A stretch of 64,000 bases of DNA from an uncultured bacterium (GTDB lineage: Bacteria > Eisenbacteria > RBG-16-71-46 > CAIMUX01): the NCBI GenBank assembly GCA_964636385.1, contig CAZWSC010000096.1:3593-67592 (forward strand), in the 5' to 3' direction. The notes under the pieces were generated by a model. It was not told the origin of the DNA. It made no database searches and was given only the letters and a program-made list of their open reading frames with translations. Below are positions 1,903 through 60,258 of this stretch, piece by piece. Within the stretch, counting starts at the first letter, position 1, and the number at the start of each line of letters is the position of its first letter. The position numbers and the translations under genes were made by a program.

Positions 1903-2257
1903 CGACACCTGCCCCAAGCCCGAATCAGCCCGTCCTCCGGGCTCGTGTGGCGCCTGAGTCAGCCCATTCCCCAGGCTCATCTCATTGTTGGAAGACGGGT
2001 GCGCTGGACTTCCTCCATTCCCTGCGCTACCATGCCTGCTGTCCGCCGGACCCTTCCGGCGGCGTGTTGGCCCGGACGACGACGCGGAGTCCGGGTTGGG
2101 GGTGTCCGGCGCGGATGCGCCGGGCTGAGAAGATACCCGTTGAACCTGATCCGGCTCACACCGGCGTAGGGAAGACACGAAGTCTGCTGATGATGCCAGC
2201 CTCCGGTCTCCTGTCCCCAAAGTGTGACGCCGCGACCTTCCACCAAGGAGGTGCGCG

Positions 2258-4657: not shown

Positions 4658-4742
4658 TCAGAAGCATTCGGGAATCCTTCACCGCGATACCGGAAGGTCG
4701 CGAGAATGGTGCGGGCTCGGCCGCACAGGAAGGGCTTGGCTG

Positions 4743-11028: not shown

Positions 11029-11150
11029 TGCAGCCAGACAGCGCCGAATGTTACCCCGGCTGGGACAGGGCGTCCATGCCGTAGCGCTGGAGATTGCTGC
11101 GCAGGGTCGATACCATGTCCCCGCGCAACCGGCGCGGAAGGGAGAGTCTG

Positions 11151-28731: not shown

Positions 28732-29105
28732 GAATAGGCCTAACCCCAAGCGCAAGAACAGGTGGCACACTACCGGGAAGCTGCCTGCCCCGGGGCTCGG
28801 ACTTGAGCTGATCAAGCTACACCCCCTTGCCGGTCCGGTCCGGCCGCAGAATTCGCAGTAGTCCGGGCGGTTCCGGGATCGGATCCCGCACCCCCGAGAC
28901 ACCTCTCCCGCCTCTCACAACTCCCCGATTGTAGCATGATGAATGGCAGGCTGCCGCTGCCTCAGGAGATGCCGCCCCCTGGGTTCGGGTGGAGATTCCG
29001 CATGCAAGGCCCGGATAAGAGAAGCCCCGGGGAAGCTACTCCCAGGGGCGCGTGCTTCGGGACCGGATCCGTGTCAGATGCAATCCTCAGTCCACAAGGC
29101 GAACA

Positions 29106-30973: not shown

Positions 30974-31255
30974 GGCTCCTATCCTCCATCCAAATGTTGG
31001 GTAACTCGACCAGGGGCCTGCGTTGTCACCATTGCCCGGATCCCGGCGCCTGGCATTCCATCTGGTCAGCGAGGGCAGCCGTCCGAAAAGAAGAAAACCC
31101 TTCGGATACCGGATGAGTTCCAGGGAAGCCTGAGGCCGGACGGCAGAGAGCTGTCTGCCACTCACGACGGGGGGGCTCGGTGGCGGCTCCCAGGCCAGGC
31201 TTCTGCACCGGTGCCGACGGGGAGATCTGGTGGGGGACTCTCCGCCTCAGTGTCA

Positions 31256-40926: not shown

Positions 40927-42789
40927 TCAGCGGGTAAGCGTGACCTTTGCTTTCGATGCAGGCTGCCCGTCAACCGAGAGGCGGACCAGGTATGTGCCGG
41001 CCACCGCATCCACGCCTGAGTTCGTCCTTCCGTCCCAGCCGACCTTGTGACCGCCTCTGTTGAGCCTGCAGTCCAGTAGACTCCGCACCAGGCGCCCGCC
41101 AGGATCGTACACCGCCAGCGATGCCTCGCCGGGAGCATCCATGTGGAGATGCAGCACCGTGTGCGGATGGAACGGATTGGGGGCAGCCGCGCGGATTTCT
41201 GCCGTAGCAGGGACAGCCCGCGGCCCAGGGCCGGTCGGATCCACCGATGCGGGACCGCCCTGCCGGATGCTGAACGAACCCGGCGTCACGGCAATAGCCT
41301 CCGGATCCGTGCCCAGCCGGAAGCGAAGGCGGCAGTCTTCGGAAGGAGTGATCCCTGGAGGCACAATCCACTGATGACGACCGTTGCAGGGCACGCTGTC
41401 CGCGATGACGGTCCAGGGGCCGTCCGGCCCGGTGGTCGAGAGCTCGATTGTCATCGGGGGCAACGGCTGCACATCGGCGGGGATGGCCGCGTGCCAGTCG
41501 ATGAAACGGACGCTGCCGGCGATGAAGACCTCACCGCCCCGCGGGTACACAGGATGCACCCAGGGGGTGTCGGGAGTGGAGCCTTCCCTGAAGAGGTGGA
41601 GTTCGTTTGTGCCGCCGATCCACCAGTGGCAGTCTTCCTCGGCGACGTAGGCGAGGTCGGCGTAGCCGCTGTGGTCGATATCTGAGCCCGCTGTGAGGGC
41701 GAGAACCCTGCATGCGCTATCGGTGGGTGTGCTCGCCGCCAGGGTCCAGTTCCCGGCGCCGTCTCCCAGGTATACGCGGGTGTTGTCCTTCGACAGTGTG
41801 ACCATGTCACCGTAGCCATCGTTGTTCATGTCGGCAATCTGTGTGAAACGGTAATCCGGGCCAATCGTCGCTAGGTCTCCCGAGAGATCCTCCCACAGGC
41901 CGTCCACCCACCTGTACACAGCGACCCCTCCGGATGTGGTGAATGCGAGTTCGTCCCGGCCGTCGCCCGTCACATCGCCCAGTGACACTCCGCTCCGCCA
42001 GGAGGGGCCGGGAAGGTTGGCGTCGGCAGGGGTGAACCCGCCCTCGCCGTCGCCGAGATAGACGGTGCCGTCGCCGTGGCCGGCGGCGAAGTCGGAGTGG
42101 CCGTCGCCGTTGATGTCGCCGAAGACGAAGATCATGTCCGAGTTGCCGCCCAGGAACCCGAACGTCCGCGTCCACGTACCGTCAGAGTTGTTGCGGTAGA
42201 CGTGTACGCCCGCGCAGCAGCCGAAGCTGATTGAGCCGACATCCAGATGGCCGTCATTGTCGATGTCGGCGAAGTCCGTTCCGAACATTCCCCAGGTCTC
42301 GCCGCTGGTGGCCAGGCCGTCGTCCCACGGGGTCCAGTTCATCCCGGTACCGTCCCCAAGCGCCACCTCGAGGAGCTGATCGCCGAAGTCGGTCCCGGAG
42401 TAGTTGTGGTGGATCCCGTACCCGACATCCATGAGCCCGTCGTTGTTGACATCGCCCAAAGCCACGCCGCCGTATCCAAAGAGGCCCTCCATGTGAAGAG
42501 TCCAGTTTCCGGTTCCATCGCCGAACCAGACCATGACGCCGTGCTGGTCGCTGTTGATGAACGGGCTGCCGTGATCCCCGACGCTGACCATGTCGGGGTG
42601 GCCGTCCCCATTCACGTCGCCGAATACGAGCTCCGTCCGTCCGTTCTCCATCCCCGGCAGGTGAAGGCCGTTGGAGGCCTCTACGTATGAGGGCACGTGT
42701 GGGGACTGCGCTGAGATGGAGGCAACGCCGGGCGGCAGTGCGAGAAGCAGGGCGGCGGCGAGCATCGGCCACAGGCAGGTCCGCTGCAT
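40927..42789 (-). CDS. Secreted FG-GAP/VCBS-repeat beta-propeller protein with T9SS-type/FlgD-Ig-like C-terminal domain
   Basis: ATG 42789 gives signal peptide MQRTCLWPMLAAALLLALPPGVASISAQS. At least six FG-GAP-like Ca-binding repeats (DVNGDGHPDMV, DVNNDGLMDVG, DIDNDGHLDVG, DINGDGHSDFA, DVTGDGRDELA, DMNNDGYGDMV). C-terminal PNPFHPHTVLHLHMD...GTYLVRLSVDG...KVTLTR sorting domain. Confidence 0.75.
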   Translation of the reverse strand: MQRTCLWPMLAAALLLALPPGVASISAQSPHVPSYVEASNGLHLPGMENGRTELVFGDVNGDGHPDMVSVGDHGSPFINSDQHGVMVWFGDGTGNWTLHMEGLFGYGGVALGDVNNDGLMDVGYGIHHNYSGTDFGDQLLEVALGDGTGMNWTPWDDGLATSGETWGMFGTDFADIDNDGHLDVGSISFGCCAGVHVYRNNSDGTWTRTFGFLGGNSDMIFVFGDINGDGHSDFAAGHGDGTVYLGDGEGGFTPADANLPGPSWRSGVSLGDVTGDGRDELAFTTSGGVAVYRWVDGLWEDLSGDLATIGPDYRFTQIADMNNDGYGDMVTLSKDNTRVYLGDGAGNWTLAASTPTDSACRVLALTAGSDIDHSGYADLAYVAEEDCHWWIGGTNELHLFREGSTPDTPWVHPVYPRGGEVFIAGSVRFIDWHAAIPADVQPLPPMTIELSTTGPDGPWTVIADSVPCNGRHQWIVPPGITPSEDCRLRFRLGTDPEAIAVTPGSFSIRQGGPASVDPTGPGPRAVPATAEIRAAAPNPFHPHTVLHLHMDAPGEASLAVYDPGGRLVRSLLDCRLNRGGHKVGWDGRTNSGVDAVAGTYLVRLSVDGQPASKAKVTLTR

Positions 42790-43077
42790 CAGGATGAGCA
42801 GACGCGGTGCCAGGCTGCGCGGATGCGGTACCGGGAGTTGAAGAGGCGGTGTAAGGGTGCCCGGGGTGCCATCCGTTGAAAGCACCGAAGAGTGGAGCAT
42901 GGGTATGGATTGTGCGGGTGAAGTGTGCATGGCAGCCCCCTGTCTCTGTTCCACCCGAGGAACGCGGCAGCTTCAGACGGTGCAGGATCCTGGATCAGCC
43001 TTCTTGGTCCGGGTCCAGGCCCGGTGAGTGGTCCGGGCCTCCGCAATGTGCATGGCCGATGATAACAGATCCCTGGA

Positions 43078-46125
<3,048 letters not shown>

Positions 46126-46397: not shown

Positions 46398-47444
46398 ATG
46401 AGAAGATCCATCAGGAACCTGTGTGCGCTTATCCCTGCTATCACTGCCGTTTTGGCTGCAGGTATCACTCAGGCATCCATCGGCTCTGCGGATGCCGGCG
46501 GCAGCGGCAGTGTAACGGTGTTCGACTCGGCGATGATCCACTTCAACCCGGATACGACCGCGAAGTACTCGCTCCCGAACCTTGACCACGAGGACAAGGG
46601 ACGCATCGCCGTCACACATTCGGTGCTGCCGGATGATGCACCTCCGGGGCGGACTCACGCGCGGTTCACCCTGCACCCGGTGCCGAAGAGCGCCCGGGAG
46701 GTATGGGATCGATGGGATCGCGCAGGCAGTTTTCGCCTCGCCATCGAGGGGGAGCCCGACCTCGAGATCGTGCGCTTCATCACGAGCTACGGCGGCCGGA
46801 CCGATCACGTTGTCGATGTCTCGGAGCTTGCGCCGCTTCTTCGCGGGAAGCGGATCATGAAGGCATTCGTCGACACCTGGTCCAGCCCCGGCTGGCGCGT
46901 CGACTTCGCACTGAACTTCGAGCCGGACAGTCTGTACACGCCGCCCGTGTGGGTACAGCCGGTCTTTTTCACCGACTCCTTCAACGCTCATGACTTTGGT
47001 GACGGCGCGGAGGTCGCCGTGTCGGTGCCGGACGGCCTCTCCCGGGTGGTCCTGCGCTATCTGACCACCGGCCATTGCACAGACGGGAGGGGCGCTGACG
47101 AGTTCGTGCCAAAGGCGAATGTCATCTCGGTGAACGGATTCGTCGTTCATCGCTTCCATCCGTGGCGCGACGACTGCCGCCGCTTCCGCGATCGCAATCC
47201 CTACACAGCGCGCTGGACGACCGGGTACTGGTCCAGCGATTACAGCCGAAGCGGCTGGTGCCCGGGCGACGAAGTCCTTCCCCTGGAACTCGATCTCAGC
47301 GATCACCTTGTCGCAGGCGATCACACGATTCGCTTCGTCATCGAGGATATGCGACCGCGGGATGAGGATGGCCACTACGGATACTGGCGCGTGTCGGCCG
47401 CGCTCGTGGGGTGGGACAGGCCGCCGAACCTCTGGCGGAACTGA
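46398..47444 (+). CDS. Peptide-N4-(N-acetyl-beta-glucosaminyl)asparagine amidase F (PNGase F) family protein, secreted
   Basis: ATG 46398 with signal peptide MRRSIRNLCALIPAITAVLAAGITQASIG. Collinear with Elizabethkingia PNGase F as recalled: VRFITSYGG (cf GRFITPYWVG), VDVSELAPLL...DTWSS.GWRVDF (cf IDVTDFKSLL...ETWLAKGREYSVDF), RYLTTGHC (cf RTTISGWG), SRSGWCPGDEV (cf DRAGWCPGMAV). Confidence 0.7.
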   Translation: MRRSIRNLCALIPAITAVLAAGITQASIGSADAGGSGSVTVFDSAMIHFNPDTTAKYSLPNLDHEDKGRIAVTHSVLPDDAPPGRTHARFTLHPVPKSAREVWDRWDRAGSFRLAIEGEPDLEIVRFITSYGGRTDHVVDVSELAPLLRGKRIMKAFVDTWSSPGWRVDFALNFEPDSLYTPPVWVQPVFFTDSFNAHDFGDGAEVAVSVPDGLSRVVLRYLTTGHCTDGRGADEFVPKANVISVNGFVVHRFHPWRDDCRRFRDRNPYTARWTTGYWSSDYSRSGWCPGDEVLPLELDLSDHLVAGDHTIRFVIEDMRPRDEDGHYGYWRVSAALVGWDRPPNLWRN

Positions 47445-47448
47445 GGCG

Positions 47449-50400
47449 ATGTCCGAGCCTGCGCATGTCCGTCTGGCGGGCTGGTCCTCTTCGCTCGCCG
47501 GGAAGACGATCGAGTACCACAGCCCCTATCCCGGTGTCCGGCGAGCCTTGCTCTGCCGCGCCATGGGGAGTCGGATGGCGATTGCGTGGCGGACGGCGCC
47601 GTGCCCGCGCGCGGCCGTACGGACGTCCGACGCCCCAGTCTCCTTCCTATGGCTGGCCGGCCTCGCGACCGGCAAGGGAGCGCACAGCTTTACGCTGACG
47701 GCCGGCGGGCTAAGGGGAGGCCCCGCTGTCTTCACCTTCCGTACCGACGGGGCGCGGGAGTGGCATGCTGGCTCGCCCTGCGGAGCCAGCCTCTCTTTCA
47801 CAACAACCCTTGTCGACCAGTTCGATGAGCTGTTCGGCATCATGTCCCTGACTCTGCCGGCTGCGGTGCCGTGTTCCGGCAGTCCGCTGGAGATAGCTGT
47901 CGAAGCCGGGGATGCCGGGAGTGATGACTGGTTCATGACATTCGAGCACCCCCTCGCCGATTGGGTGCACGCGGAGGCTGAGCCCGCACTGCTGAACGGC
48001 CCTGCCGGTCTGCTGCAGCCGATTCTCGTCGAGATCAGCAGGCTGGGCGCTCCGACCAGGGTTGCGGTAGAGGTGCGGCGTATGCCCGGACGGGATGCCT
48101 GCGAGGCCGGAGAGGCCGGGGATGCCGGAACCGTAGTGGATGCTGGAGACGCCGTGGATGCCGACGCCATTGCACTCTGCGCAGAAGCCGGCGCAGTGGT
48201 CGAAGACGGGTTCACAATCGCCACAGGCCACAACGAGATCAGGGTGCCCGTTCCCGCGGTCGACTCTCCCGCCGTGACGGGGCTCATTGTAAGGTTCGCA
48301 GATGGCACACCGGATGCGTTGCTGACAGTTGAACAGCGTCCCGTGCGCATGAGGGAGATATGTCTGCTCCCGCATCCACATCTCGACATCGGTTACACGA
48401 ATCACCAGGACGAGGTGGAGAAGCGCCACTGGGCTCACCTGGATGATGCGCTGAGCCTGGCGCACAGTAGCGGCCGGCTCCCGGAGAAGGCTTCCAGCCA
48501 TGCCGGCAGTTCGTGTGAGTGCGCGGGGAAGGTTTTCAGCCTGACCGGCAGTACGGGCCGACATCCACGGGAGGCGCGTTTCCGCTGGAATGTCGAGCAG
48601 CTCTGGGCGGTGGAGAGCTGGTGGCGCCGGGCCTCGCCGGGGCGACGGGAGGAACTCGCCGAGGCCGTTCGCCAGGGCTACATCGGCCTGCAGGCCATGC
48701 TGGCGGGTGTTCTGACAGGCCTCTGCGGTCCTGAGGAACTGCGGCACCTGACCGACTTCAGCCGCGAGCTGTCCCGGGAGATCGGGGTCGTCATCGACAC
48801 AGCGATGATCACCGACATCCCCGGGCAGAGCTGGGGGCTCGTGCCCGCGCTTGCAGAAGCCGGCGTGCGGTATCTGTCCAGCGGACCGAACTACATGCCC
48901 GGCCTTGCCGACGGGGGCGACAGGATCGGCGGCATCCTGAAGGCCTGGGGCGACCGGCCGGTCTGGTGGGAGTCGCAGTCGGGAGAGGAGCGGATCCTCT
49001 TCTGGATGGCGGGCCGCGGATACTCCTGGTTTCACGGCCTGAACGGCGCTTCGATCGATCCTGAACGGCCGCGGCCGCTGATGGAGTATCTTTCACAGCT
49101 CGAAGAGGCGGAGTATCCATACGACCTGATCCAGGTGCGCTACACGATCGGCGGCGACAACGGCCCGCCCGATCCGACGCTGCCGGGCAGCGTGGCCGCC
49201 TGGAACGAGCGCTACGCCTCGCCCCGGCTGCGGATCGCCACGACAGGCGGGATGTTCCGCGAGATGGAGAGGCGCCACGGGAATGAGATACCCACGGTGC
49301 GCGGGGATTTCACGCCGTACTGGGAGGACGGCGCGGCTTCCAGCGCCGCCGAGACGGCGATGAACCGTAACAGCGCAAACCGGCTTGTACAGGCTGAGTC
49401 GTTGTGGCGGAGCCAGGATGCGGAATCGGCGCCTGCGGAGGAGTTCACGGCTGCGTGGCGGAAGGTGGTCCTCTTCAGCGAACACACATGGGGGGCAGCG
49501 GAGAGCGTGAGCGATCCCGACAGCCCGCACGTGCGCGCCCAGTGGGAGTACAAGCGCGGCCTTGCCCTGGATGCTGACCGGATGTCACGGGAGCTTATGG
49601 GTCGGGCGATGGAGACTGCGGCGGGGACGCGACAGGTGGCGGGAAGAGGTCCGGGGGCAGAAGCAGGGCCAGGGGCAGGTGCAGTGCCGGGGGCAGGATC
49701 CGGGGCAGACACAATGCCGGGACCTTCCGGAAGCCCCCGGGGATCCTATGGCCATCTTTCGGGCGCTTGTACAGTCACGGTGTTCAACACACTCGGGTGG
49801 CCGCGCTCGGGCGTTGTCAGGGTGCCGGAGCGAAGATCCGGGGCAGGAGATCGCGTGCTTGATTCTGACGGCAGACCTGTGCCGTCTCAGCGTCTGACGG
49901 GCGGTGAGCTGGCCTTTCTCGCGGAGGATCTGCCTGCCGGAGGTATGCGGCGCTACAGCGTCGTCGCGGGCGGGGCCTTTGCTCCTGCAGCAGGAAGCGA
50001 GGCGGATTGCGATGGTCTGAGCATGCGGAATGGCCGGTTGAGCGCGGCAGTGGATCCTGAGACAGGGGCGGTCTTGAGCCTGATCCGGCTCTCTTCAGGA
50101 GTCGAGCTGGTCGACCGGTCGCTCTGGCCGGGCCTGAACGCCTGGCTCTACATTCCTGGTCGGGATCCGCGGTTGGCCATCGGGATCACCGGGCAGGACA
50201 GCGTCGAGGTGACGATCGGGGAGAGAGGGCCGCTCGTGGCGTCGCTGCGGATCCGGTCCGAAGCTCCCGGGGCGATGATGCTGCAGCGCGAGCTCAGCCT
50301 TGCCGCGGGGAGCGACTGCCTGGAGATCGATAACCTGATCGACAAAATCGCCGTGCGGGAGAAGGAGAGTGTGCACATCGCCTTCCCGTTTCTGGTTCCG

Positions 50401-50799
50401 GGCGGCCTCGTGCAGCTGGACCTGGGCGGCATTGTCGTCAGGCCGGATCTCGACCAGGTCGCCGGCGCCTGCCGCGACTGGTTCTGTGTGCACAGCGGGG
50501 TGGAGGTGGCGAACCGGGACATCGGCGTGATCCTGACAGCGCGCGATGCCCCCCTGGTGGAGATCGGCGCCCTGACGGATGAGATGCCTCGGGCCTGCGG
50601 CAGGCGCGGATGGCGGAGCGGAGTGGGCGAGAGCCAGACCATCTTCTCCTATGTCATGAACAACTACTGGCATACGAACTACAGGGCGGAGCAGGAGGGG
50701 TTGGTCAGGCTGCGTTATTCAGTGCGTCCGTTCAGCGGGAAGGGGCCGGGGCTGACCGCGCAGGGGAGGTCGGATGTACAGCCGCTGCTCGTGTTCTGA
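47449..50799 (+). CDS. GH38-family alpha-mannosidase-like protein with ~330-aa N-terminal extension and internal Gly/Ala/Pro-rich insert
   Basis: GH38 core from about aa 330: LLPHPHLDIGYT (cf HSHxDxGW), RFRWNVEQLWAVESW, DIPGQSWGLVPALAEAGVRY (cf DPFGHSxxxPxLL), TPYWEDGAASSAAET, SEHTWGAAESV, YVMNNYWHTNY. N-terminal region has acidic degenerate repeats (EAGEAGDAGTVVDAGDAVDADA). Low-complexity GPGAEAGPGAGAVPGAGSGA insert at about nt 49650-49720. No signal peptide from ATG 47449. Confidence 0.7.
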   Translation: MSEPAHVRLAGWSSSLAGKTIEYHSPYPGVRRALLCRAMGSRMAIAWRTAPCPRAAVRTSDAPVSFLWLAGLATGKGAHSFTLTAGGLRGGPAVFTFRTDGAREWHAGSPCGASLSFTTTLVDQFDELFGIMSLTLPAAVPCSGSPLEIAVEAGDAGSDDWFMTFEHPLADWVHAEAEPALLNGPAGLLQPILVEISRLGAPTRVAVEVRRMPGRDACEAGEAGDAGTVVDAGDAVDADAIALCAEAGAVVEDGFTIATGHNEIRVPVPAVDSPAVTGLIVRFADGTPDALLTVEQRPVRMREICLLPHPHLDIGYTNHQDEVEKRHWAHLDDALSLAHSSGRLPEKASSHAGSSCECAGKVFSLTGSTGRHPREARFRWNVEQLWAVESWWRRASPGRREELAEAVRQGYIGLQAMLAGVLTGLCGPEELRHLTDFSRELSREIGVVIDTAMITDIPGQSWGLVPALAEAGVRYLSSGPNYMPGLADGGDRIGGILKAWGDRPVWWESQSGEERILFWMAGRGYSWFHGLNGASIDPERPRPLMEYLSQLEEAEYPYDLIQVRYTIGGDNGPPDPTLPGSVAAWNERYASPRLRIATTGGMFREMERRHGNEIPTVRGDFTPYWEDGAASSAAETAMNRNSANRLVQAESLWRSQDAESAPAEEFTAAWRKVVLFSEHTWGAAESVSDPDSPHVRAQWEYKRGLALDADRMSRELMGRAMETAAGTRQVAGRGPGAEAGPGAGAVPGAGSGADTMPGPSGSPRGSYGHLSGACTVTVFNTLGWPRSGVVRVPERRSGAGDRVLDSDGRPVPSQRLTGGELAFLAEDLPAGGMRRYSVVAGGAFAPAAGSEADCDGLSMRNGRLSAAVDPETGAVLSLIRLSSGVELVDRSLWPGLNAWLYIPGRDPRLAIGITGQDSVEVTIGERGPLVASLRIRSEAPGAMMLQRELSLAAGSDCLEIDNLIDKIAVREKESVHIAFPFLVPGGLVQLDLGGIVVRPDLDQVAGACRDWFCVHSGVEVANRDIGVILTARDAPLVEIGALTDEMPRACGRRGWRSGVGESQTIFSYVMNNYWHTNYRAEQEGLVRLRYSVRPFSGKGPGLTAQGRSDVQPLLVF

Positions 50800-50887: not shown

Positions 50888-51283
50888 TCACGGAGCTTTC
50901 CAGACCGGCTGATCGTCTTCGTCAAGCATCCACAGGCGCGGACCGACATCGAATACTCCCAGGCCGACCCTGGTTCTCCGGCCGCTGTCGTTCAGCACGA
51001 GGCCGGGGCCGAACTCCGAGACATCCATGTCCAATCTCAGGTTGCCCACCGTGTCGTACATGAGCAGGCGGGCTCCGCTGTCCGTCGCGCCGAGGGTCGC
51101 GCGGACCAGGCCGTCCTCGTCCACGATGACGAGTCGCCGGCCCCGCAGTTCTTCCAGGGCTTCCGGCCGTGACGCCTGTCCCATGAGGACGACGGCCGCG
51201 GCGATCAGAAGCGCGGCCAGCCCTGCCAGCTTCATGCTCCTGTTCTGGCGTTCAAGCTTCGCCATCCGATCTTCGAGTGTCAT
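50888..51283 (-). CDS. Hypothetical small membrane-anchored protein
   Basis: 131 aa. N-terminal coiled-coil-like LEDRMAKLERQNRSMK, one TM helix LAGLAALLIAAAVVLMG, then a beta-rich C-terminal domain. No family recognised. Confidence 0.35.
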   Translation of the reverse strand: MTLEDRMAKLERQNRSMKLAGLAALLIAAAVVLMGQASRPEALEELRGRRLVIVDEDGLVRATLGATDSGARLLMYDTVGNLRLDMDVSEFGPGLVLNDSGRRTRVGLGVFDVGPRLWMLDEDDQPVWKAP

Positions 51284-51531
51284 GTCGGGTCGCCCTCCTG
51301 CCTGTCGAGCATTTGCGAAGAGTCTTCCTTGATAACGTGTCCCGGAACCCTTCTCTCATCTCGCCGTCTGCAGTATAGCGGAAAGACGTGTTCGCCTGCA
51401 TCTTCTGCGTGTCAGCGAGGTGTCAGGACAGGCCCGGGAGACAATCCGGGCGGGGCCATGCGTTGCGGGGCGTTGTTCGACGGGCAGATAAGCCGGTTAC
51501 ATCTGTCACCGCGTTCGTGCATAGTCGGCTC

Positions 51532-53007
51532 ATGTTCAGGAACAACGGGATCACCGACAACCGCAGCCGTCTTCTGAGGATCGCTCAGGAGGCGATGCTG
51601 GAGAGGGAACTGCTGCCCAGGTTCTCCACCAGATCCCAGGCTGAAGCCGGCCGGCTACTGTTGCCGGAACTCCTGAACGGAGACGGGCGTCGGGATCTGC
51701 GCCATCTGCTCTGGTCCTCCATCGACAATGACGACTCCCGGGACCTTGACCAGCTGACTGCGGCGGAAGAGCTCGAAGAGGGCGTTGTGAAGATCTATGT
51801 GGCAGTGGCCGACGTAGACGCTCTGGTCTCCCCTGGCTCTGCCGTGGACAGCCATGCCCGTCACAACACAACATCCGTCTACACCCCGCCGACAGTTTTC
51901 CCCATGATTCCCACCGAGCTCTGTTACGACCTCACCTCACTGAATCAGGATGAAGACCGTCCGGCGATGGTGGTCGAGATCCTCATCGGCGGGGACTCAA
52001 GGATGAAGCCGGGGAGCATCTATCCTGCGGTGGTGCGGAACAGGGCCAGGCTGGCTTACGGCGATGTGGGGTCCTGGCTGGCGCAGGAGGGACCGCTGCC
52101 CCCGGCCGCGGCCGGCATTCCAGGTCTGGACGGGAACCTCAGGCTCCAGAGCCTCGCGGCACGCCGCCTGCGGGCGATACGGGAGGAGCAGGGCGCCCTC
52201 GAACTGCAGACTGTCCAGGCCAGGCCCTACTTTCGCGAGAATGACACGCTGGGTGTTTCGCTGGAGAAGACGAATCCGGCTACGGAGCTGATAGAGGATC
52301 TGATGATCGCGGCCAACACCGTGACGGCCCGCTTCCTGCGTTCAAGGAAGCGTCCCTCCCTTCGCCGCGTGGTCAGGGAGCCGGCGCGCTGGGACCGGAT
52401 TGCCGATCTTGCCTCGGAGTATGGCAGTGATCTGCCGTCGAGGCCCGACTCCAGGGCCCTGGCCGGATTTCTGGTGGAACAGAGGGAACGGGATCCCCTG
52501 CGTTTCCCCGATCTCTCACTCTCCGTGATCAAGCTCATCGGCTCGGGGGAGTATGTTGTGGAACTCCCGGGTGAGAAGCCTGTCGGCCACTTCGGACTGG
52601 CCGTGCGCAACTACACGCACTCTACAGCGCCGAACAGGCGTTACCCCGATCTTATCACCCAGCGCCTGCTGAAGTCGGCCCTGGCTGACGAGCGACCTCC
52701 ATATGAAGTCACCGAACTGACGATCCTGGCCCGCCACTGCACGGGAAAGGAGGATGACGCTGACAAGGTCGAGCGGAAGGTGAACAAGGCAGCTGCGGCA
52801 CTTCTCCTGGAATCCCGTATCGGGGAGCGTTTCGATGCCCTGGTCACCGGAGCCGCGGCCAAGGGGACGTGGGTTCGTGTCCTGGATCCTCCAGTGGAAG
52901 GGAAGCTGGTGCGGGGAGCGGACCGCGTGGACGTGGGTGACAGGATAGAGGTGGAGCTGACAGGCACCGATGTGGAGCGGGGGCACATCGACTTCAGGGC
53001 GGTGTGA
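51532..53007 (+). CDS. RNB-domain exoribonuclease (RNase II/R family)
   Basis: In-frame ATG 51532. RNB catalytic motifs SIDNDDSRDLDQL (Asp cluster) and HFGLAVRNYTHSTAPNRRYPDLITQR (cf YTHFTSPIRRYxDLxxHR). C-terminal S1-like segment GKLVRGADRVDVGDRIEVEL. Confidence 0.8.
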   Translation: MFRNNGITDNRSRLLRIAQEAMLERELLPRFSTRSQAEAGRLLLPELLNGDGRRDLRHLLWSSIDNDDSRDLDQLTAAEELEEGVVKIYVAVADVDALVSPGSAVDSHARHNTTSVYTPPTVFPMIPTELCYDLTSLNQDEDRPAMVVEILIGGDSRMKPGSIYPAVVRNRARLAYGDVGSWLAQEGPLPPAAAGIPGLDGNLRLQSLAARRLRAIREEQGALELQTVQARPYFRENDTLGVSLEKTNPATELIEDLMIAANTVTARFLRSRKRPSLRRVVREPARWDRIADLASEYGSDLPSRPDSRALAGFLVEQRERDPLRFPDLSLSVIKLIGSGEYVVELPGEKPVGHFGLAVRNYTHSTAPNRRYPDLITQRLLKSALADERPPYEVTELTILARHCTGKEDDADKVERKVNKAAAALLLESRIGERFDALVTGAAAKGTWVRVLDPPVEGKLVRGADRVDVGDRIEVELTGTDVERGHIDFRAV

Positions 53008-53015
53008 TGCCGGTC

Positions 53016-56000
53016 CTACGCGCGCTGGAACACAACCTCAACCGTCACGATCTCGTGCGCCGCCAGTTCCACGGCGACCTTCCGTGCGGTGTGGGACAAC
53101 CCATTCAGATGATCGAGCGCCTCTCCCCCGCTCCGGCTTGAGTCGACTGCGGTGCTCATACCGCTGCGCTCACGCGTCTCCGCCATATCCGGTCGTATCA
53201 ACTCCTCCAGCCGTTCCTCGAGCAGGTCCAGCCTCCACGCCTCTGCAACCGGCAGTCCTGCGATCAGCGTCTGTCTCTGCGGCCAGTCGGTCTGATTCCA
53301 GATGCGCACGACCAGGGTGTCTCGCTTTGGATGGCGTCGGATGGCGGTGACTGCGACTTCGGGGTTGCTGATTTCCAGCAGCGACCCGCCTTTCGCGGCG
53401 CCCGCCACAACACCCTGCCGGGTCGGCGGAGGACTCAGGAAAGCGCGGCTGCGCCAGCGTAGATCGCCATTGCCCGGGCCATGCGAACCGCCGGCGTGCG
53501 GCAGAAGGGGAGCGAGCGCATAGCGGAAGAGATGCACGCCCTGCAGTTGAGCATCGGGGGTTGCGATTGTCGGTCCGGCATTCGTGTTGCGGCGCGTCGG
53601 GAAGTCGTCGCGGGAGAGCCAGCCGACACAGCGAATCAGCGTCAGCGCCACGCCGGCGCTTCCGTCAGGATTCCGCACAGGCGCGACTTCCGGAAGGCCG
53701 TCGGCGATCAAGGCCAGTCCCATCCCGGATTTGTCGCGCAGAAGGGAGAACTCCTGCTGCGGATATGTGCCGGGATGCGGCTGCGCCCAATCCTCTCCGG
53801 ATGGAGGCGTCATGGGGCGGGCGGCGAGCGTGAACTGCCCGTCGCTGACAAGCTGATCCGTGCTGACCATGCCACAGAAGACTGAGCGAAGACGGTGGTC
53901 GCAGGCACGGTTGTCAAATCTCGTCGTGATCCCGGCGACATCGGTCCCTGCGGTGAGCCGAACTGTGACCTCCACTGGGCAGGCGACGGTGTCGGAAGAG
54001 CGCGCAGTGCGATTGGCATTCAACGCGCGGGGAGGCGCCAGGTCGAAGCGGGCCGTCAGCGAAGCTGCAAGGCCGGTGTCCTCTGTTACAGCGACCGATC
54101 CCGCGATTCCCTCGGCACTGATCGTGAGGCTCTGCGTACATGGCGACCAGTCGTACTCATCGCCCGCATCCTCGGTGTCCTCAAGCCTGTTCAGGCCTGT
54201 CAGGGAGAGACCGCTGCGCTTGTCCAGCAGATCGATGAGGCCGTTCGGGTGGATGGTTATGCGGAGGCATTCGTTCTCAACCGATGCAGTATCCGTATGT
54301 GAGTCCTGTTGGACGCGGACCAGTGCACGGCCGCGAATAGAGTCGCACCCGGTGGGGACAGGTTCGCCCGCAGCTGCGTCCTGATTACGCTTCCCGACCC
54401 CCTCGGTATCCGGGTCTGCGTCTCCGGCAATGACTCCTCCGACAGCCTTTCCACCAACCTCCCCGTCATCCACTGGGCCATCATCCGTCAGCCTGTACAC
54501 AGTGTGTCCGCAGGCCGGAAGATCGCGCGCCAGAAACTGGATCTCCAGGAAGCAGTCGACAAGGTCGTCATCTCGATCATCCTCCGTCCGTACGATGCGA
54601 TCTGCGAAGGTCTCGAGATATCTGTCCAGGAGTTCCCGCTGCGAGCCGGCACACAACTCGCCGCGGTAGTCGATTCCCCAGAAGCGCTGCAGGAAGCGCC
54701 GGGATTTCACAACCCATGGCACCGGACGGCCATCGGCATCCAGGAGTCTCAGGCGGTCAAACATGTATCGCATCGGCTGCAGTATGACGACCCTGTCGAT
54801 AACTTCGGTGCGGCGCCATGGAAGCGGGTTCGCCACGGTGATGATTGTGTCGCGATCGTCGGCATGCGTGGGGCCGAATGCGGGTGTCAGCCGTTCGAGG
54901 GTGCGCGAGATCAGGTGTTCTCCGGTTTCGCAGATTTCCGAGAAGCGCGTTTCCATGTCCCGGTGCACCTGGTCGATCGAGCAGCCGCCGATGCTGTCGT
55001 GCGCATGGTTCTCCAGCAGCCTGCGCCAGAGAAGCTCCACAAGGTCGGTGCGGGCAGGTGCGCCGTGCATGAAGTACGCATAGGCGAGCAGGGGCTCGAG
55101 CTGATGCGAGAGCAGATCCTGGCACCCGGCGTTGGCCTGCTTGAGCGGCATGCGTGATGACCACACACCGGAGAGGATCAATGCTTCCCTCCCGCCGAGC
55201 AGCTCACCTTGCCATGCAGGGAGTTCGGGCAGCGTGGGTCGAAGGGCGGCGAGGTATTCGCCGAAGCTTCCTTGCAGGAACTCCGTCTCCGGGAAGGCCT
55301 CGCGCAGCGCGGAGAGGATGCGGCCGAGTTCCCGCTGGGGGGGATGGTGATCGCATCCGTTGCTCAGCAGCCACACGTCGCCGCGGCTGCGGGTCTGCAT
55401 CTTCCCGAACAGCGAACGTACGCCCTCTACCGCTGCAGCGGGATCGAGCGCCCGCCTGGTGTGCGCGTGCCACAGCTCCGAGTGGCCGAGTGCCGCCGCA
55501 TTCACGTATCCGTCAACCTGGTTCACTGCCAGGACGCGGCTTCCATCGGGCGCCTCCCACCACCACTCAAGTCCCAGGCCTTCAGCTTCGTCTCCGTGAC
55601 CCCGCCAGTAGATGAAGCTGTCGATCCCCGCCCGGCGCAGGATCTGTGGAAGCTGGGCGATGTGTCCGAAGGTGTCAGGCAGGTATCCGACCTTCTGAAC
55701 GCCCCCGAGGCTTTCACCCACGGCGTGCCCGATCTGCAGGTTCCGTACAGTCGCCTCGCCCGACACGAGGAACTCATCCGGGAGCACATACCACGGACCC
55801 AGCACAAGCTTCCCCGATTCCACCAGGGCCCGCACCCTGGCGGTCTGTCCCGGTCTCGCATCAAGGTAGTCGGAGAGAGCCAGAAGCTGCCCGTCGAGGC
55901 AGAACCGGCGCCAGTCGGGATCGTGCTCGAGGAGATCCAGAACCTCGTCGATCGTCTCCAGGAGTTGTACACGGAATCGCGGGAAGGTCAGGTACCACTC

Positions 56001-56054
56001 GCGGTCCCAGTGTGTGTGGGAGACTATGAACGCCTGTCTTGGGTGCCGGGGCAT
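53016..56054 (-). CDS. GH38-family alpha-mannosidase (cytoplasmic)
   Basis: Start at in-frame ATG 56054, because the track's upstream extension would overlap the GH130 gene and is Arg-rich. Classic GH38 N-terminal motif FIVSHTHWDREWYLTF. LPDTFGHIAQLPQILRRAGIDSF (nucleophile-region WxxDxFGHS type). GGMEHxxxxGC-type blocks. No signal peptide. Confidence 0.85.
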   Translation of the reverse strand: MPRHPRQAFIVSHTHWDREWYLTFPRFRVQLLETIDEVLDLLEHDPDWRRFCLDGQLLALSDYLDARPGQTARVRALVESGKLVLGPWYVLPDEFLVSGEATVRNLQIGHAVGESLGGVQKVGYLPDTFGHIAQLPQILRRAGIDSFIYWRGHGDEAEGLGLEWWWEAPDGSRVLAVNQVDGYVNAAALGHSELWHAHTRRALDPAAAVEGVRSLFGKMQTRSRGDVWLLSNGCDHHPPQRELGRILSALREAFPETEFLQGSFGEYLAALRPTLPELPAWQGELLGGREALILSGVWSSRMPLKQANAGCQDLLSHQLEPLLAYAYFMHGAPARTDLVELLWRRLLENHAHDSIGGCSIDQVHRDMETRFSEICETGEHLISRTLERLTPAFGPTHADDRDTIITVANPLPWRRTEVIDRVVILQPMRYMFDRLRLLDADGRPVPWVVKSRRFLQRFWGIDYRGELCAGSQRELLDRYLETFADRIVRTEDDRDDDLVDCFLEIQFLARDLPACGHTVYRLTDDGPVDDGEVGGKAVGGVIAGDADPDTEGVGKRNQDAAAGEPVPTGCDSIRGRALVRVQQDSHTDTASVENECLRITIHPNGLIDLLDKRSGLSLTGLNRLEDTEDAGDEYDWSPCTQSLTISAEGIAGSVAVTEDTGLAASLTARFDLAPPRALNANRTARSSDTVACPVEVTVRLTAGTDVAGITTRFDNRACDHRLRSVFCGMVSTDQLVSDGQFTLAARPMTPPSGEDWAQPHPGTYPQQEFSLLRDKSGMGLALIADGLPEVAPVRNPDGSAGVALTLIRCVGWLSRDDFPTRRNTNAGPTIATPDAQLQGVHLFRYALAPLLPHAGGSHGPGNGDLRWRSRAFLSPPPTRQGVVAGAAKGGSLLEISNPEVAVTAIRRHPKRDTLVVRIWNQTDWPQRQTLIAGLPVAEAWRLDLLEERLEELIRPDMAETRERSGMSTAVDSSRSGGEALDHLNGLSHTARKVAVELAAHEIVTVEVVFQRA

Positions 56055-56158: not shown

Positions 56159-57172
56159 TCAGTTGCAGGCGGTGACCAGCTCCTGCACCGTGGCAGTGGC
56201 GGCGCCCACGCAGCTGTCGGCCGCGCCGTAGACGACCTCGATTACGTTGTCGGCCGGGAGGAAGCCATCCGGGTCGTGTTCGCCGCAGATCAGGCCGCTG
56301 GGGAAGACCACATTCGGCACCTGGCCTACCATCTCGTAAAGCTCGCGCGGCTCGAGAATGTTGTCCCGTGTCCGCCCAAGCACGACACCTGGATCGTCGA
56401 GCTTCAAGAGCACGGCGCCCGCCTGGTATATGAACGCGTTCAGATGAGTGGCGACTCCGTGATACAGAAGAAGCCATCCATCAGCTGTCTTCACGGGCGG
56501 CGGACCGGGGCCGATCAGCTCGTCCCAGAAGTGGCGGCGACCGGAGAAGACCGGCCCCTCGCTCTTCCAGCGCACAAGGTCTTCCGAGCTGAGCAACTCA
56601 ATCGCATCGCCGCTTGTCACACCGGTTGTCGAGTGGACAGTGTTCGGCCGCTCCAGCAGGAGATACCTGCCGCCTGTCTTCTCGGGGAACAGAACACCGT
56701 TGCGGACGTCCACATCGCCTGTCACGGACAGAAGCTCGAGGCGGGAGAAGTCGTCGGTTGTGAAGATGCCGACCCGGCAGCCGCTGTTTGTGTCGATGGA
56801 ACATGTGACGAACCAGCGTCCCTCCAGCCTTGTGATCCGCGGATCGTAGATGTGGTGGATCCCGCCGGCCGGCCTTCCCTGGTCCCCGGCTTTCGCGGTT
56901 TGCGGCTCGATGCGGGCACTCTCTCCCAGCCTGTCCAGTCCGCTGATCTGGACAATCCGGGGCTCGACGCTGAACTCCCCGCGGTCGTTGCCGAACGCCC
57001 GCATGAAGATGGTGCGGCGGCCGCGGGTCTGCACACGCAGGAGCAGGAGCGGCTGTTCCGTTTCCAGACGGCAGGCGCCAGGGTTGAATACGCTTGTTGC
57101 GTCGACCAGGCAGGGTGGCACATCCGGGATGTCGTGGCGTGTCAGCAGTGGGCCGTTACGGCGACGGAGCAT
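56159..57172 (-). CDS. GH130-family beta-1,4-mannoside phosphorylase (mannosyl-GlcNAc / mannooligosaccharide phosphorylase-like)
   Basis: 337 aa. GH130 five-bladed-propeller motifs FNPGA, IYDPRITRLEGRWFV, NGVLFPEKTGGRYLLLERP and LLYHGV. No signal peptide. Confidence 0.8.
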   Translation of the reverse strand: MLRRRNGPLLTRHDIPDVPPCLVDATSVFNPGACRLETEQPLLLLRVQTRGRRTIFMRAFGNDRGEFSVEPRIVQISGLDRLGESARIEPQTAKAGDQGRPAGGIHHIYDPRITRLEGRWFVTCSIDTNSGCRVGIFTTDDFSRLELLSVTGDVDVRNGVLFPEKTGGRYLLLERPNTVHSTTGVTSGDAIELLSSEDLVRWKSEGPVFSGRRHFWDELIGPGPPPVKTADGWLLLYHGVATHLNAFIYQAGAVLLKLDDPGVVLGRTRDNILEPRELYEMVGQVPNVVFPSGLICGEHDPDGFLPADNVIEVVYGAADSCVGAATATVQELVTACN

Positions 57173-57217: not shown

Positions 57218-59146
57218 CTACTCCCGCACAATGCCGTCATCGTCAGGATCCTGTTCCGTTTCGCGGAGACGGGCGAACATCCGGCGCAGATCACGGATGC
57301 CGCCGATGGTGAACCAGACGAGCACGATGCCGGCCATGGTGAACTGCACACCCATGAACCAGCGCCAGAACCGCGTCCAGCTCGCATCATCGACGCTGTG
57401 TGTAAGGTTGTAGATCGTGCCTGTGACGAAGATCGTGAACCAGGCGAATGTCCAGCAGTAGGTGGCTATGTAGAAGATCTTGTCCCGGCGTGAGAACTCG
57501 CGGGTGAACATGAAGATCTTCGCCGCCCGGGAGACGACCCCTTCGCCTTCAACGCGTTCCGATGCGACCTGCCAGCGGCCGCGGTGCAGGAGGCGGTCCA
57601 GGTTGAACTCGTGCCCCGGGCCGAGGAGCGAGACCATGGCATAGACGATGAGCGATGCACCCATCGACAGCGCCCAGAACTGCTGGCCATTGATGGGGAA
57701 TTCGTCGTAAATCTGGTGGGCGACGATTCCCCCGACGGCGATCCCGGATCCGGTCAGCATAGCCGCCCAGGCCGCAGGAGTGGTGCCGCGCTTCCAGTAG
57801 AGCCCGCCGATTATGATCGCCCCGGAGCCGCCGGCGAAGATGGCGCCCGTGATCGCGAAGAAGAGGAAGATGTACTGGTTCTGCTGGAAGAGCAGGGAGA
57901 AGAGAAAGATGAAGAGGGCCACTCCCAGGATCGAGAGCCTCAGCGCACGCAGGTGTGTCTTCTGATCCAGGGGCCTGCTGCCGCGAAGAGGAAGGAGCAC
58001 ATCCTGCACGAAGATCGACCCCCACGAATGCAGGTACGTGTTATGGGTCGAGATGAAGGCGGCCAGCATCACCGCGGCGAAAGCGCCGAGAAGACCATGC
58101 GGGAGGATCTGCACCAGCACAAGGGGGGCGCGCATCTGGCTTCGGATCGCCTCGCGCTCCACTCCGGCCATTTGCAGGTTCACCCCCTCGGCGACTGCCG
58201 CGAAGTCGGGATGGTGGAGGATCGTGTAGATGACAATCGGCACGAAGACAAGGAATAGATTCTGAGGGGCGAACTTCCACATACCCAGGGCTTCGCCGAT
58301 CTTGGCCTCGTGCGCGCTGCTTGCGGAGGCGTTGTACGCCTGGGTGCCCTGCCAGCTCATCTTGCCGTATATGAGGCCCGCGATCCCGATGAGGAAGTAC
58401 CAGAAGTTGAAGTCCTTGACGTGGCTTGTCTTGAAGGGGTTTATCAGAGACGCGTTCTCGGGCGCCATGGCAAGGGCCCCGAATACCTGGTCCCAGGTCA
58501 CGACCTTCCAGATCAGCCAGAAGCACATGAAGACGAACACCACGTTGACAAAGGCGCCCTGGAAGAAGTCGGTCACTATGACCGAGATCTGACCTCCCTT
58601 GAACACGAAGAAGAGGGCGATCAACAGCAGCAACGCCATCAGCAGCGGGTAGACAGGAACAGCAAGCGGGCCGAGGGGGATGTGGGACGGGAACCCGCAG
58701 TAGTGGATGAAGAAGCGGGCGCCGACCGCCGGGAATATGCCGAAGTTGATGATCCCCGAGATCCAGCAGACGGTTCCCGCGAAGATGCGGAAGTTGCGGG
58801 AGTACCTGCGCTCGAAGAACTCGGCGAGGGTCAGGCAGCGGGTCTGCCTGAAACGGTAGATGACCCAGCCGCTGAGTGTGATGACCATGATGACGACGGA
58901 GGTGGTCATCCCCCACCAGGACATCGAGAACCCGGCGATAAAGTTCATCTCGAGGTTGCCGACGATCGTTATCGCGCCGAGCCCTGCAATTCCGCTCGCG
59001 ATGCTGACCAGGTAGCGGCCCGCGCAGCGCCGCGCCGCGAGAAAGTCCGCAACAGATCGTGTACGGCCGCTGCTGCGGATTACGCCCGTCAGAAGGAGGG
59101 CGAGCATGCCCAGGATGATGAGCCAGTCCCAGAGTATGAGGTTCAC
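57218..59146 (-). CDS. Sodium:solute symporter (SSF) family transporter
   Basis: 642 aa, about 13-14 TM helices, SSF-like topology. GTG start. 4-nt overlap with the stop of the downstream CBM9-like gene. Sits between GH130 and CBM9-like genes. Confidence 0.7.
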   Translation of the reverse strand: MNLILWDWLIILGMLALLLTGVIRSSGRTRSVADFLAARRCAGRYLVSIASGIAGLGAITIVGNLEMNFIAGFSMSWWGMTTSVVIMVITLSGWVIYRFRQTRCLTLAEFFERRYSRNFRIFAGTVCWISGIINFGIFPAVGARFFIHYCGFPSHIPLGPLAVPVYPLLMALLLLIALFFVFKGGQISVIVTDFFQGAFVNVVFVFMCFWLIWKVVTWDQVFGALAMAPENASLINPFKTSHVKDFNFWYFLIGIAGLIYGKMSWQGTQAYNASASSAHEAKIGEALGMWKFAPQNLFLVFVPIVIYTILHHPDFAAVAEGVNLQMAGVEREAIRSQMRAPLVLVQILPHGLLGAFAAVMLAAFISTHNTYLHSWGSIFVQDVLLPLRGSRPLDQKTHLRALRLSILGVALFIFLFSLLFQQNQYIFLFFAITGAIFAGGSGAIIIGGLYWKRGTTPAAWAAMLTGSGIAVGGIVAHQIYDEFPINGQQFWALSMGASLIVYAMVSLLGPGHEFNLDRLLHRGRWQVASERVEGEGVVSRAAKIFMFTREFSRRDKIFYIATYCWTFAWFTIFVTGTIYNLTHSVDDASWTRFWRWFMGVQFTMAGIVLVWFTIGGIRDLRRMFARLRETEQDPDDDGIVRE

Positions 59147-60258
59147 GGGCAGGATCCCTCACATGAGAGGCGGCCTTCGTGGTCCACGGACCATCTTGCT
59201 CCGCCTGCCGTGTGCAGTGTCGCGTGAAAGACGTGGGTGCCGGCGTCCATCTCGAGACGAAGCGAGGACAGCTCGCTGCGCACGGCAGGAGGCAGTGTGG
59301 CCAGATGCGCAAGGCCGGCCGCAAACCATCCGTACTCGTCCCGGAAGAGACGCTGTGCGTAGTAGAGCGGCATCAGGAGCCCTGCGCCCGGCCGGGCCAG
59401 GGGGCGCGGGTCGGCTGGCGTGTCTTCCGGATCGCCCATGAACGTCACGAACCCCCACCGCTCCGGCATGTGCATCGCGACAAGGCCTTGTGGTGACCAG
59501 ACCCAGTTGTCCTCGCCGATCCAGCCGCGTCCCTCCACGGGAGTCTTCACGTAGCGGTCATCATCGATGATGTGCTCCCACTGCACGCGCGAGAAGTTGA
59601 TCCGCCATGTGTCGCCCGGCCCGGGAGGGGATGGCCGCGATCCGGCAAGCTCCTTCAGGGCAGCCCAGGGGATCGCGATCTCGACCGTCCACCCGGTGTC
59701 TTCGTCGGATGGGTCGTCCAGTGTGCCGTCTACGTGTACGGCGGTCCGCAGGCCAGCGATGTCCCATCCGTTGATGGCCGGGCCTCCGTCACGGTAGGGC
59801 CGTACGAGGAGGAGGTCCCACTCCGTGCCCAGGGCGTTGATCTCGAGTTCGCCGTAGAGATGGTTGCTGCCGTCGGGGTCGATGAAGACCTCGAAATCGT
59901 TGTCGTGGAAGAGAACGGCATCGCGCTCGGTCAGTGTGCCCCATACGTGCGGCTCCTCCATCTCGGCTGCGATGTACAGGGCGTGCTGATCCCACAGCAT
60001 CCTGGCGCGCGTGCGGTAACGCGGCGTCACGAGGCGCGCCTCGCCTTCGATATCGACGAACTCCTCCGTCCAGGGCGCCAACTCCCAGACGGCATCGTCA
60101 AGACGCCCGTCGATGACCGGCGGTGTGGGAGTGGGCGGGCACTGGTACCAGCGGGGATTCCAGGGCGTGGTGGGATACTCGAAGGCGGAGGCTGTGGAGA
60201 CCGCCGCCGGGAGGAGAAGCAGCGTCACCAGGAGCCTCACCCGGCCTGAAAGCTTCAT
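59143..60258 (-). CDS. Secreted carbohydrate-binding CBM9-like/DOMON-like domain protein
   Basis: ATG 60258 gives signal peptide MKLSGRVRLLVTLLLLPAAVSTASA. Segment TPPVIDGRLDDAVWELAPWTEEFVDIEG matches the start of CBM9-like family 9 carbohydrate-binding modules. No catalytic motif. Confidence 0.5.
   Translation of the reverse strand: MKLSGRVRLLVTLLLLPAAVSTASAFEYPTTPWNPRWYQCPPTPTPPVIDGRLDDAVWELAPWTEEFVDIEGEARLVTPRYRTRARMLWDQHALYIAAEMEEPHVWGTLTERDAVLFHDNDFEVFIDPDGSNHLYGELEINALGTEWDLLLVRPYRDGGPAINGWDIAGLRTAVHVDGTLDDPSDEDTGWTVEIAIPWAALKELAGSRPSPPGPGDTWRINFSRVQWEHIIDDDRYVKTPVEGRGWIGEDNWVWSPQGLVAMHMPERWGFVTFMGDPEDTPADPRPLARPGAGLLMPLYYAQRLFRDEYGWFAAGLAHLATLPPAVRSELSSLRLEMDAGTHVFHATLHTAGGARWSVDHEGRLSCEGSCP

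Follow-up and report, generated by a model that had tools for sequence, protein, structure and literature searches.

Peptide-N-glycosidases (PNGases; EC 3.5.1.52) of the PNGase F family are widespread in bacteria (PMC8812541) and are also found in many animals (PMC12753239). Described members include (i) PNGase F of Elizabethkingia meningoseptica (type I; Protein Data Bank (PDB) entries 1PNF, 1PNG and 1PGS), in which Asp60 and Glu206 are catalytic and chitobiose is bound by Trp59, Arg61 and Trp191 (PMC12753239), while Glu118 blocks the space for a core α-1,3-fucose (Crouch et al., PMC9522356); (ii) the Bacteroides group 1 enzymes, which have Asp at the Glu118 position (PMC9522356) and carry an insert described as a β-sheet twist or extended β-hairpin (PMC9522356, PMC8812541), and of which BF0811 of B. 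fragilis (3KS7) is active on complex and high-mannose glycans and not on plant glycans (PMC9522356); (iii) type II enzymes, whose Gly at the Glu118 position leaves space for core α-1,3-fucose (PMC9522356), e.g. PNGF-II of E. meningoseptica (4R4Z and 4R4X) and B035DRAFT_03341 of Bacteroides massiliensis (7ZGN); and (iv) zebrafish Ngly2 (9LWG), a lysosomal acid PNGase in which the equivalents of Asp60 and Glu206 are essential (PMC12753239). Here we analyse a gene of this family (46398..47444, + strand; hereafter the window PNGase) in a 64,000-nucleotide stretch (the window) of contig CAZWSC010000096.1 (assembly GCA_964636385.1) from an uncultured bacterium of the Eisenbacteria. Our results make it quite probable, as far as sequence and predicted structure can tell, that the gene product is a catalytically competent, exported amidase of the PNGase F type and feeds N-glycan use.

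The open reading frame (ORF) is a genuine member of the PNGase F family, with a similarity far beyond chance. The Pfam domain PF09113 (N-glycanase_C) matches with E = 7.5e-34 and 117 bits (cut-off 25) over profile positions 9–140 of 140, and PF09112 (N-glycanase_N) with 28.4 bits (cut-off 22.4) over profile positions 106–177 only; the structure model and the hhalign comparison with 1PNF account for the remainder of the N-terminal domain. The NCBIfam scan gave no match for either the window PNGase or the glycoside hydrolase family 38 (GH38)-like protein encoded directly downstream. In a phmmer search of the PDB with the window PNGase, all significant matches (E ≤ 1.3e-8) are PNGase F-family proteins, i.e. 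PNGF-II (4.5e-31), BF0811 (1.4e-30), BVU_2763 (4QHB; 3.8e-29), the plant/insect-glycan PNGase 7ZGN (5.3e-27), Ngly2 (1.1e-11) and PNGase F itself (1PNF; 1.3e-8). With a profile of 24 homologues, BF0811 becomes the best PDB match (2e-45) and 1PNF reaches 1.7e-13, and hhalign aligns the same 24-sequence profile with 1PNF over 250 columns at 97.2% probability (the 1PNF sequence used is identical to PDB chain 1pnf_A in 314/314 residues). The motif blocks from which a first-pass annotation, made from the sequence alone, had recognized a PNGase F homologue are indeed present and collinear with 1PNF (window/1PNF: RFITSY/RFITPY, DVSELAPLL/DVTDFKSLL, DTW/ETW, VDF/VDF and SGWCPG/AGWCPG).

The predicted structure agrees with this assignment. 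The AlphaFold2 model, built on an alignment (mean pLDDT 81.7, pTM 0.81), consists of two blocks of 8–9 strands and has the two eight-stranded antiparallel domains of a double jelly-roll fold. The N-terminal jelly-roll domain (46503..46931, +; residues ~36–178) is delimited by the strand pattern of the model, hhalign against 1PNF and an alignment of 120 homologues, and the C-terminal domain (46944..47417, +; residues ~183–340) by PF09113 and residue mapping. The first 18 Foldseek matches in the PDB are all PNGases, with query-normalized TM-scores of 0.55–0.75, and the next matches fall to ~0.2. PNGF-II leads (8e-23, TMq 0.73–0.75); BF0811 is matched at 3e-21 (TMq 0.73, TMt 0.66), 1PNF and 1PNG reach a TMt of 0.72–0.74 and Ngly2 is matched at 1.6e-16. 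Among the weak matches below the PNGases are peptidylglycine monooxygenase and capsid proteins with a double jelly roll, as such a fold would lead one to expect (PMC8812541). The Pfam search and the structural comparison, which the first-pass annotation had named as checks of its proposal, have therefore both borne it out: the two Pfam domains score above their gathering thresholds and the model matches PNGase F-family entries only.

Active-site residues were mapped by a MAFFT alignment of the best 120 homologue clusters together with 1PNF, which agrees with hhalign. These clusters, about 52–83% identical to the window PNGase and nearly all with both Pfam domains, are the best of at least 994 found in a word-indexed search at E ≤ 1e-5, and the following conservation values refer to them. 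D107 (46716..46718, +) corresponds to the catalytic Asp60 and E235 (47100..47102, +) to Glu206, each in 120/120 homologues, and D159 (46872..46874, +) takes the Glu118 position and is Asp in 120/120. The same invariance (120/120 each) holds for R108 (Arg61), Y131 (Tyr85) and W161 (Trp120; D159-T160-W161 aligns with E118-T119-W120) in the N-terminal domain, and for R284 (Arg248), W287 (Trp251) and the C260–C288 pair (the Cys231–Cys252 disulfide) in the C-terminal domain. W106 (Trp59; N-terminal domain) is Trp in 69, Tyr in 49, Phe in one and Ile in one. A GHCTDG motif beside the active site is invariant in the clade of the window PNGase. The first-pass annotation had pointed to an Asp/Glu/Trp catalytic triad; the Asp, the Glu and most of the chitobiose-binding residues are invariant in the 120 homologues, but the loop that carries Trp191 is absent. 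A different register given by BLASTP against 1PNF (WDR 103–105 on W59-D60-R61) was dropped because hhalign and the 121-sequence MAFFT alignment favour W106-D107-R108 and W103 is unconserved.

Compared with the characterised enzymes, the window PNGase combines features of several groups. With BF0811 and BVU_2763 it shares the DRWD(K/R)xG motif, Asp-Thr-Trp at the Glu118–Trp120 positions (D159 corresponds to the Asp in the IDTW motif of 3KS7 and 4QHB), TGH and DEFV(x)K, and, like BF0811, it has no N-terminal bowl-like (NBL) domain. By contrast, BF0811 is only ~26% identical, is ~50 residues longer, contains inserts, including the extended β-hairpin (PMC8812541), that are missing in the window PNGase (~35 residues between the WD(K/R) and RFMTPFG strands and ~19 before SSDLSRS), and differs in host and genomic setting, the window locus not being of the Bacteroides SusCD type. 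PNGF-II is the best single-sequence match in the PDB and the best Foldseek match, and its C-terminal domain is highly similar (RYxTTGH, DEFVPK, PWRxDC and SRSxWCPG are common to both). However, type II enzymes are 544–559 aa long, compared to 348 aa for the window PNGase, contain an NBL domain of ~170–300 residues that the latter lacks, and have Gly at the Glu118 position (IGNY in PNGF-II, VDTW in the window PNGase).

PNGase F has the same minimal two-domain architecture and nearly the same mature length (314 aa versus ~320 aa), and its Trp59, Asp60, Arg61, Tyr85, Trp120, Glu206, Arg248, Trp251 and Cys231–Cys252 all have equivalents. It differs in overall sequence (18–25% identity), in having Glu118 instead of Asp and in the Trp191 loop, which is deleted in the window PNGase; the sequence match to PNGase F (1.3e-8) is also far weaker than that to type II and group 1 enzymes (~1e-31). 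The PNGase F-type domain of Ngly2 has the same two catalytic residues, Asp and Glu (PMC12753239), but the protein is a eukaryotic dimer of 687 aa with a protease-associated domain and an acidic pH optimum, and has His at the positions of Trp59 and Arg61, where the window PNGase keeps Trp and Arg. Based on the invariant Asp159 at the Glu118 position and the group 1 motifs, we predict a type I (Bacteroides group 1) specificity, i.e. high-mannose, hybrid and complex glycans would be accepted and core α-1,3-fucosylated plant or insect glycans would not.

The gene runs from an ATG at 46398 to a stop codon ending at 47444 and encodes 348 aa, which agrees with the coordinates given in the first-pass annotation. 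This start is supported by a Shine–Dalgarno sequence (GGAGGA) 8 nt 5′ of the ATG, by the JGI annotation of the source contig (~200 kb, metagenome 3300001533), which calls an identical product of 348 aa, and by the lengths of the homologues (337–371 aa), in which the M1 column is almost invariant. The ATG is nested in a longer ORF with a GTG start at 46110 (444 aa), which was ruled out since the extension is missing in the homologues and in the JGI call, and the Shine–Dalgarno sequence precedes the ATG. The exact protein is present in NCBI, JGI and Logan assemblies. The G+C content is ~64% across the window, and a promoter and terminator scan returned nothing of use.

Read by eye, the N-terminus resembles a Sec signal peptide (46398..46496, +; residues 1–26 or 1–33), as the first-pass annotation had also noticed, with a positively charged n-region (RR..R), a hydrophobic core of 16 residues and AXA-type cleavage sites after TQA26 or ADA33; the AlphaFold2 model has a helix at residues 11–25 with low pLDDT. 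The catalytic domains begin ~10 residues past the signal peptide and the mature protein is ~320 aa long. It carries neither a lipobox nor a C-terminal domain of the type IX secretion system (T9SS). A TonB-dependent receptor encoded elsewhere in the window (2258..4657, +) shows that there is an outer membrane, i.e. that the host is diderm. Taken together, these features make the periplasm the default location of the enzyme, and release to the outside is possible.

We also analysed the genes around the window PNGase. Starting only 5 nt past its stop codon is the gene of the GH38-like protein (47449..50799, +; 1116 aa, without a signal peptide; also called by JGI), and given this short gap the two genes are probably co-transcribed. 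The protein is divergent: PF01074 (Glyco_hydro_38N) matches with 31.1 bits (cut-off 25), and the matches to the GH38 middle and C-terminal domains are weak. As a single sequence it has no match in the PDB, whereas its family profile finds Ams1 (5.8e-11) and also the jack-bean α-mannosidase. The family is large and uncharacterised, with 4017 representative clusters at E ≤ 1e-3 and 1116 at E ≤ 1e-30, and within its conserved HSHxDIGY motif the residues H309, H311 and D313 never vary.

Further downstream lies a minus-strand operon of four genes, followed by a GH20 gene, all within 15 kb of the window PNGase. In order of transcription, the operon encodes (i) an exported CBM9-like protein of 371 aa (59143..60258, −; PF06452, 2.4e-11; start MKLSGRV; with a signal peptide), which has weak CBM9 matches in the PDB; (ii) an SSF sodium:solute symporter (57218..59146, −; PF00474, 4.5e-21), whose gene shares its first 4 nt with the end of the CBM9-like gene; (iii) a GH130 β-mannoside phosphorylase (56159..57172, −; PF04041, 1.2e-39), matching TM1225 (5.5e-43) and UhgbMP (7e-33) in the PDB; and (iv) a cytoplasmic GH38 α-mannosidase (53016..56054, −; PF01074, 1.1e-35, and PF09261; start MPRHPRQ), matching 3lvt (1e-96) and the Streptococcus pyogenes enzyme 2wyh (3.5e-86). 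The GH20 β-N-acetylhexosaminidase (60462..62105, +; PF00728, 6.5e-113, and PF02838; start MSGQEP) has no signal peptide. Judged by eye, signal peptides are present on the window PNGase and the CBM9-like protein and on none of the glycosidases. GH38, GH130 and hexosaminidase activities are established steps in bacterial breakdown of the N-glycan core (PMC10154615).

The GH38 gene differs between assemblies. A stretch of 35 nt (53301..53335) is missing in the JGI assembly (L013), with clustered mismatches just after it up to 53377, and this loss shortens the JGI call to 949 aa. Because the window version keeps the C-terminal β-sandwich domain in frame, the JGI difference is an assembly or strain variant.

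Comparison of ~16 homologous loci reveals that the association with glycan-degradation genes recurs. In a locus from another, distant uncultured bacterium (L012), the genes for GH130, CBM9-like protein, SSF, GH38, PNGase and GH20 are contiguous and on one strand, in an order unlike that of the window and with GH20 immediately after the PNGase, and the encoded proteins are 27–62% identical to their window counterparts, with 45–62% for the families that surround the PNGase; the SSF symporter is 60% identical to its syntenic counterpart and the CBM9-like gene is likewise syntenic. In a 4.3-Mb contig (L016), a GH20 gene begins 4 nt past the PNGase gene. A neighbourhood of carbohydrate-active enzymes (CAZymes) is confined to these two loci and the window, which rules out a universal synteny. 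In brief, the catabolic cluster is real in the window and recurrent, but not universal to the clade. The proposal of the first-pass annotation that protein deglycosylation serves foraging gains support from the GH38-like gene at 5 nt, the GH38, GH130, SSF, CBM9-like and GH20 genes within 15 kb, and the loci L012 and L016.

On the other side of the window PNGase, 272 bp away and divergently transcribed, lies the gene of a large exported protein with a signal peptide, an FGE-sulfatase domain and a PQQ-type propeller (43078..46125, −; PF03781, 1.3e-37, and PF13360), just as the first-pass annotation had described. A functional link between the two genes was dropped because no such neighbour stands beside the PNGase in the other loci.

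The first-pass annotation had also held that PNGase F homologues occur mainly in Flavobacteriia and a few Bacteroidota. This view is outdated: many of the homologue clusters come from metagenome-assembled genomes (MAGs) of Eisenbacteria and Krumholzibacteriia, and several, mostly from Candidatus Eisenbacteria MAGs, are already named 'peptide-N-glycosidase F-related protein' by NCBI. Among the GTDB species genomes with a relative are members of Krumholzibacteriia (75% identity), Eisenbacteria, Omnitrophota and Ignavibacteria, and a Bacteroidota MAG. The annotation's placement of the gene in a non-Flavobacteriia background is sound, since none of the host signals shows an affinity to Flavobacteriia.

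Relying on these findings, we propose the following sequence of events. The Sec signal peptide would carry the window PNGase across the inner membrane, and the mature enzyme would fold into two jelly rolls of eight strands each, which enclose a cleft that forms the active site. There, W106, R108, Y131, D159, W161, R284 and W287 may hold the chitobiose core while D107 and E235, by homology, would hydrolyse the Asn–GlcNAc amide bond, converting Asn to Asp and freeing the intact glycan as a glycosylamine. The freed glycan or its fragments might then be imported by the nearby SSF symporter, and import would be followed by breakdown with the co-located enzymes that lack signal peptides: the GH38-like and GH38 proteins could act as α-mannosidases, GH20 could remove GlcNAc or cleave chitobiose, and GH130 could carry out phosphorolysis of Man-β-1,4-GlcNAc.

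Several observations weigh against such an exported, catabolic PNGase. For the enzyme itself, (i) identity to characterised enzymes is 18–26%, so that even the best relative is only ~26% identical; (ii) hhalign and MAFFT both align Trp191 with a gap, the loop being shorter than in PNGase F; (iii) two of the three PNGase F disulfides (Cys51–Cys56 and Cys204–Cys208) are missing; and (iv) the model has low confidence (pLDDT 46–60) in the loop that contains R284 and W287. For the pathway, the route of the glycan to the cytoplasm is a difficulty, as all glycosidases lack a signal peptide and it would be unusual for an SSF symporter to carry a large oligosaccharide. For the gene set, an unrelated gene of an RNase II-family exoribonuclease (51388..53007, +; RNB and S1 domains) and a small membrane-anchored hypothetical ORF (50888..51283, −), located between the GH38-like and RNase II genes, break up the glycan-degradation genes, and both are missing in the L012 cluster; moreover, the PNGase homologues of L003, L004, L009, L011, L018 and L019 have no CAZyme neighbours. 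As to point (ii), TGH instead of SGWGH is also found at the place of Trp191 in the type II and group 1 enzymes, so that this residue defines PNGase F in the strict sense and not the family at large.

Some of these features might instead be traits of a group of its own. The window PNGase belongs to a compact clade without a characterised member, and from its conserved residues we infer that it is very probably active. It is possible, though doubtful, that this is a distinct 'minimal' PNGase clade in bacteria outside the Bacteroidota (~320 aa mature, ≤26% identity; an invariant GHCTDG motif and only one disulfide, with the NBL domain, the group 1 hairpin and the Trp191 loop all absent) that works in a pathway unlike the SusCD type. 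A periplasmic PNGase would then act on glycopeptides, the SSF symporter would import the product, and cytoplasmic degradation by the GH38-like, GH38, GH130 and GH20 enzymes would follow. Should this hold, members of the clade could differ from PNGase F in substrate range, pH or activity on native proteins.

The sparse CAZyme neighbourhoods raise the question of whether an active PNGase is needed for foraging at all. It could instead turn over or edit glycoproteins of the cell's own envelope or secretome, or strip the proteins of competitors or hosts. In most loci the homologue stands alone or beside non-CAZyme genes, which means that the catabolic link is not universal in the clade, and its neighbours include genes for a TPR protein, MscL, a PMT_2 glycosyltransferase, a prolyl oligopeptidase and FG-GAP/FlgD_ig surface proteins, an FG-GAP/FlgD_ig protein recurring near the PNGase in the window and in L001, L002, L005 and L008. 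The window gene, however, is coupled to the GH38-like gene amid a full set of N-glycan core-degrading enzymes and a transporter, and the same association is seen in L012 and L016. Also, chitobiose-core N-glycosylation is not known from such bacteria. We therefore regard a purpose other than foraging as unlikely for the window PNGase.

Two related observations deserve mention. A FlgD_ig-like domain forms the C-terminus of several large exported proteins, among them an M1 peptidase and FG-GAP repeat proteins, and gives a sub-threshold match to the T9SS sorting tail; in the window such proteins are encoded at 175..1902 (+), 25972..28902 (−) and 40927..42954 (−), and in other loci at L001:1498-3768 and L002:2881-4986. 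In L019, a PMT_2-family glycosyltransferase with TPR repeats (L019:4605-6842) is encoded two genes upstream of the PNGase homologue, which may be coincidence.

A second alternative concerns the substrate. The protein could be an amidase with a PNGase F fold that acts on archaeal or bacterial N-glycans, on free GlcNAc-Asn or short glycopeptides only, or on another glycosylamide. This would be compatible with the 18–26% identity of the clade to characterised enzymes, the missing Trp191 loop and the clade's own invariant GHCTDG motif, and the probable periplasmic location favours small glycopeptides. Nevertheless, the chitobiose-contact residues of 1PNF are invariant except for Trp191 (and W106, which is mostly Trp or Tyr), and the neighbouring GH38, GH130 and GH20 fit a Man-GlcNAc2 core, making a different substrate quite unlikely. 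Finally, it is extremely improbable that the protein merely binds glycans without catalysis, or that it is a decayed copy in which just the fold survives: beyond the general point that jelly-roll domains are often carbohydrate-binding modules (PMC8812541), nothing speaks for it, and the reading frame is undamaged and preceded by a good ribosome-binding site, while the invariance of the catalytic Asp and Glu and of the binding residues across 120 clusters with 50–83% overall identity indicates purifying selection on the active site.

The window has several other notable features. Peptidases are concentrated in it, i.e. an M32 carboxypeptidase (11094..12641, +), two M1 aminopeptidase-family proteins (23036..25798, −, and 25972..28902, −) and an HtrA-type serine protease (29453..31165, −), which fits a lifestyle of protein or glycoprotein degradation. 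A TPP riboswitch (2088..2189, +; 59.4 bits) lies directly 5′ of the TonB-dependent receptor gene, which is followed by the gene of an SSF-family transporter (4356..6173, +); together they are probably a riboswitch-controlled system that takes up thiamine or one of its precursors. The lineage signals of the window conflict. SdhA (6377..8110, +) is 82% identical to proteins of Spirochaetota MAGs and 77% to that of Spirochaeta lutea, whereas the window PNGase is closest to proteins of Krumholzibacteriia and Eisenbacteria MAGs; the best matches of the RNase II protein reach 66% and those with names come from mixed phyla. The sdhA gene may have been horizontally transferred.

Returning to the putatively exported PNGase and its co-located enzymes, the family, its mechanism, its broad bacterial distribution and the NCBI name were already established, and the current understanding of them is unchanged. 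What is new here are the possible properties of the compact clade, a pathway that would be centred on the cytoplasm and use an SSF symporter instead of a SusCD system, and the GH38-like partner family. The window provides a well-supported case of uncultured sediment bacteria outside the Bacteroidota with a dedicated gene set to strip and consume eukaryote-type N-glycans, a set that starts with a PNGase instead of a GH18 or GH85 endoglycosidase. This is relevant to how carbon and nitrogen from glycoproteins are turned over in sediments, and it is reasonable to look for new deglycosylation reagents in the compact PNGase clade.

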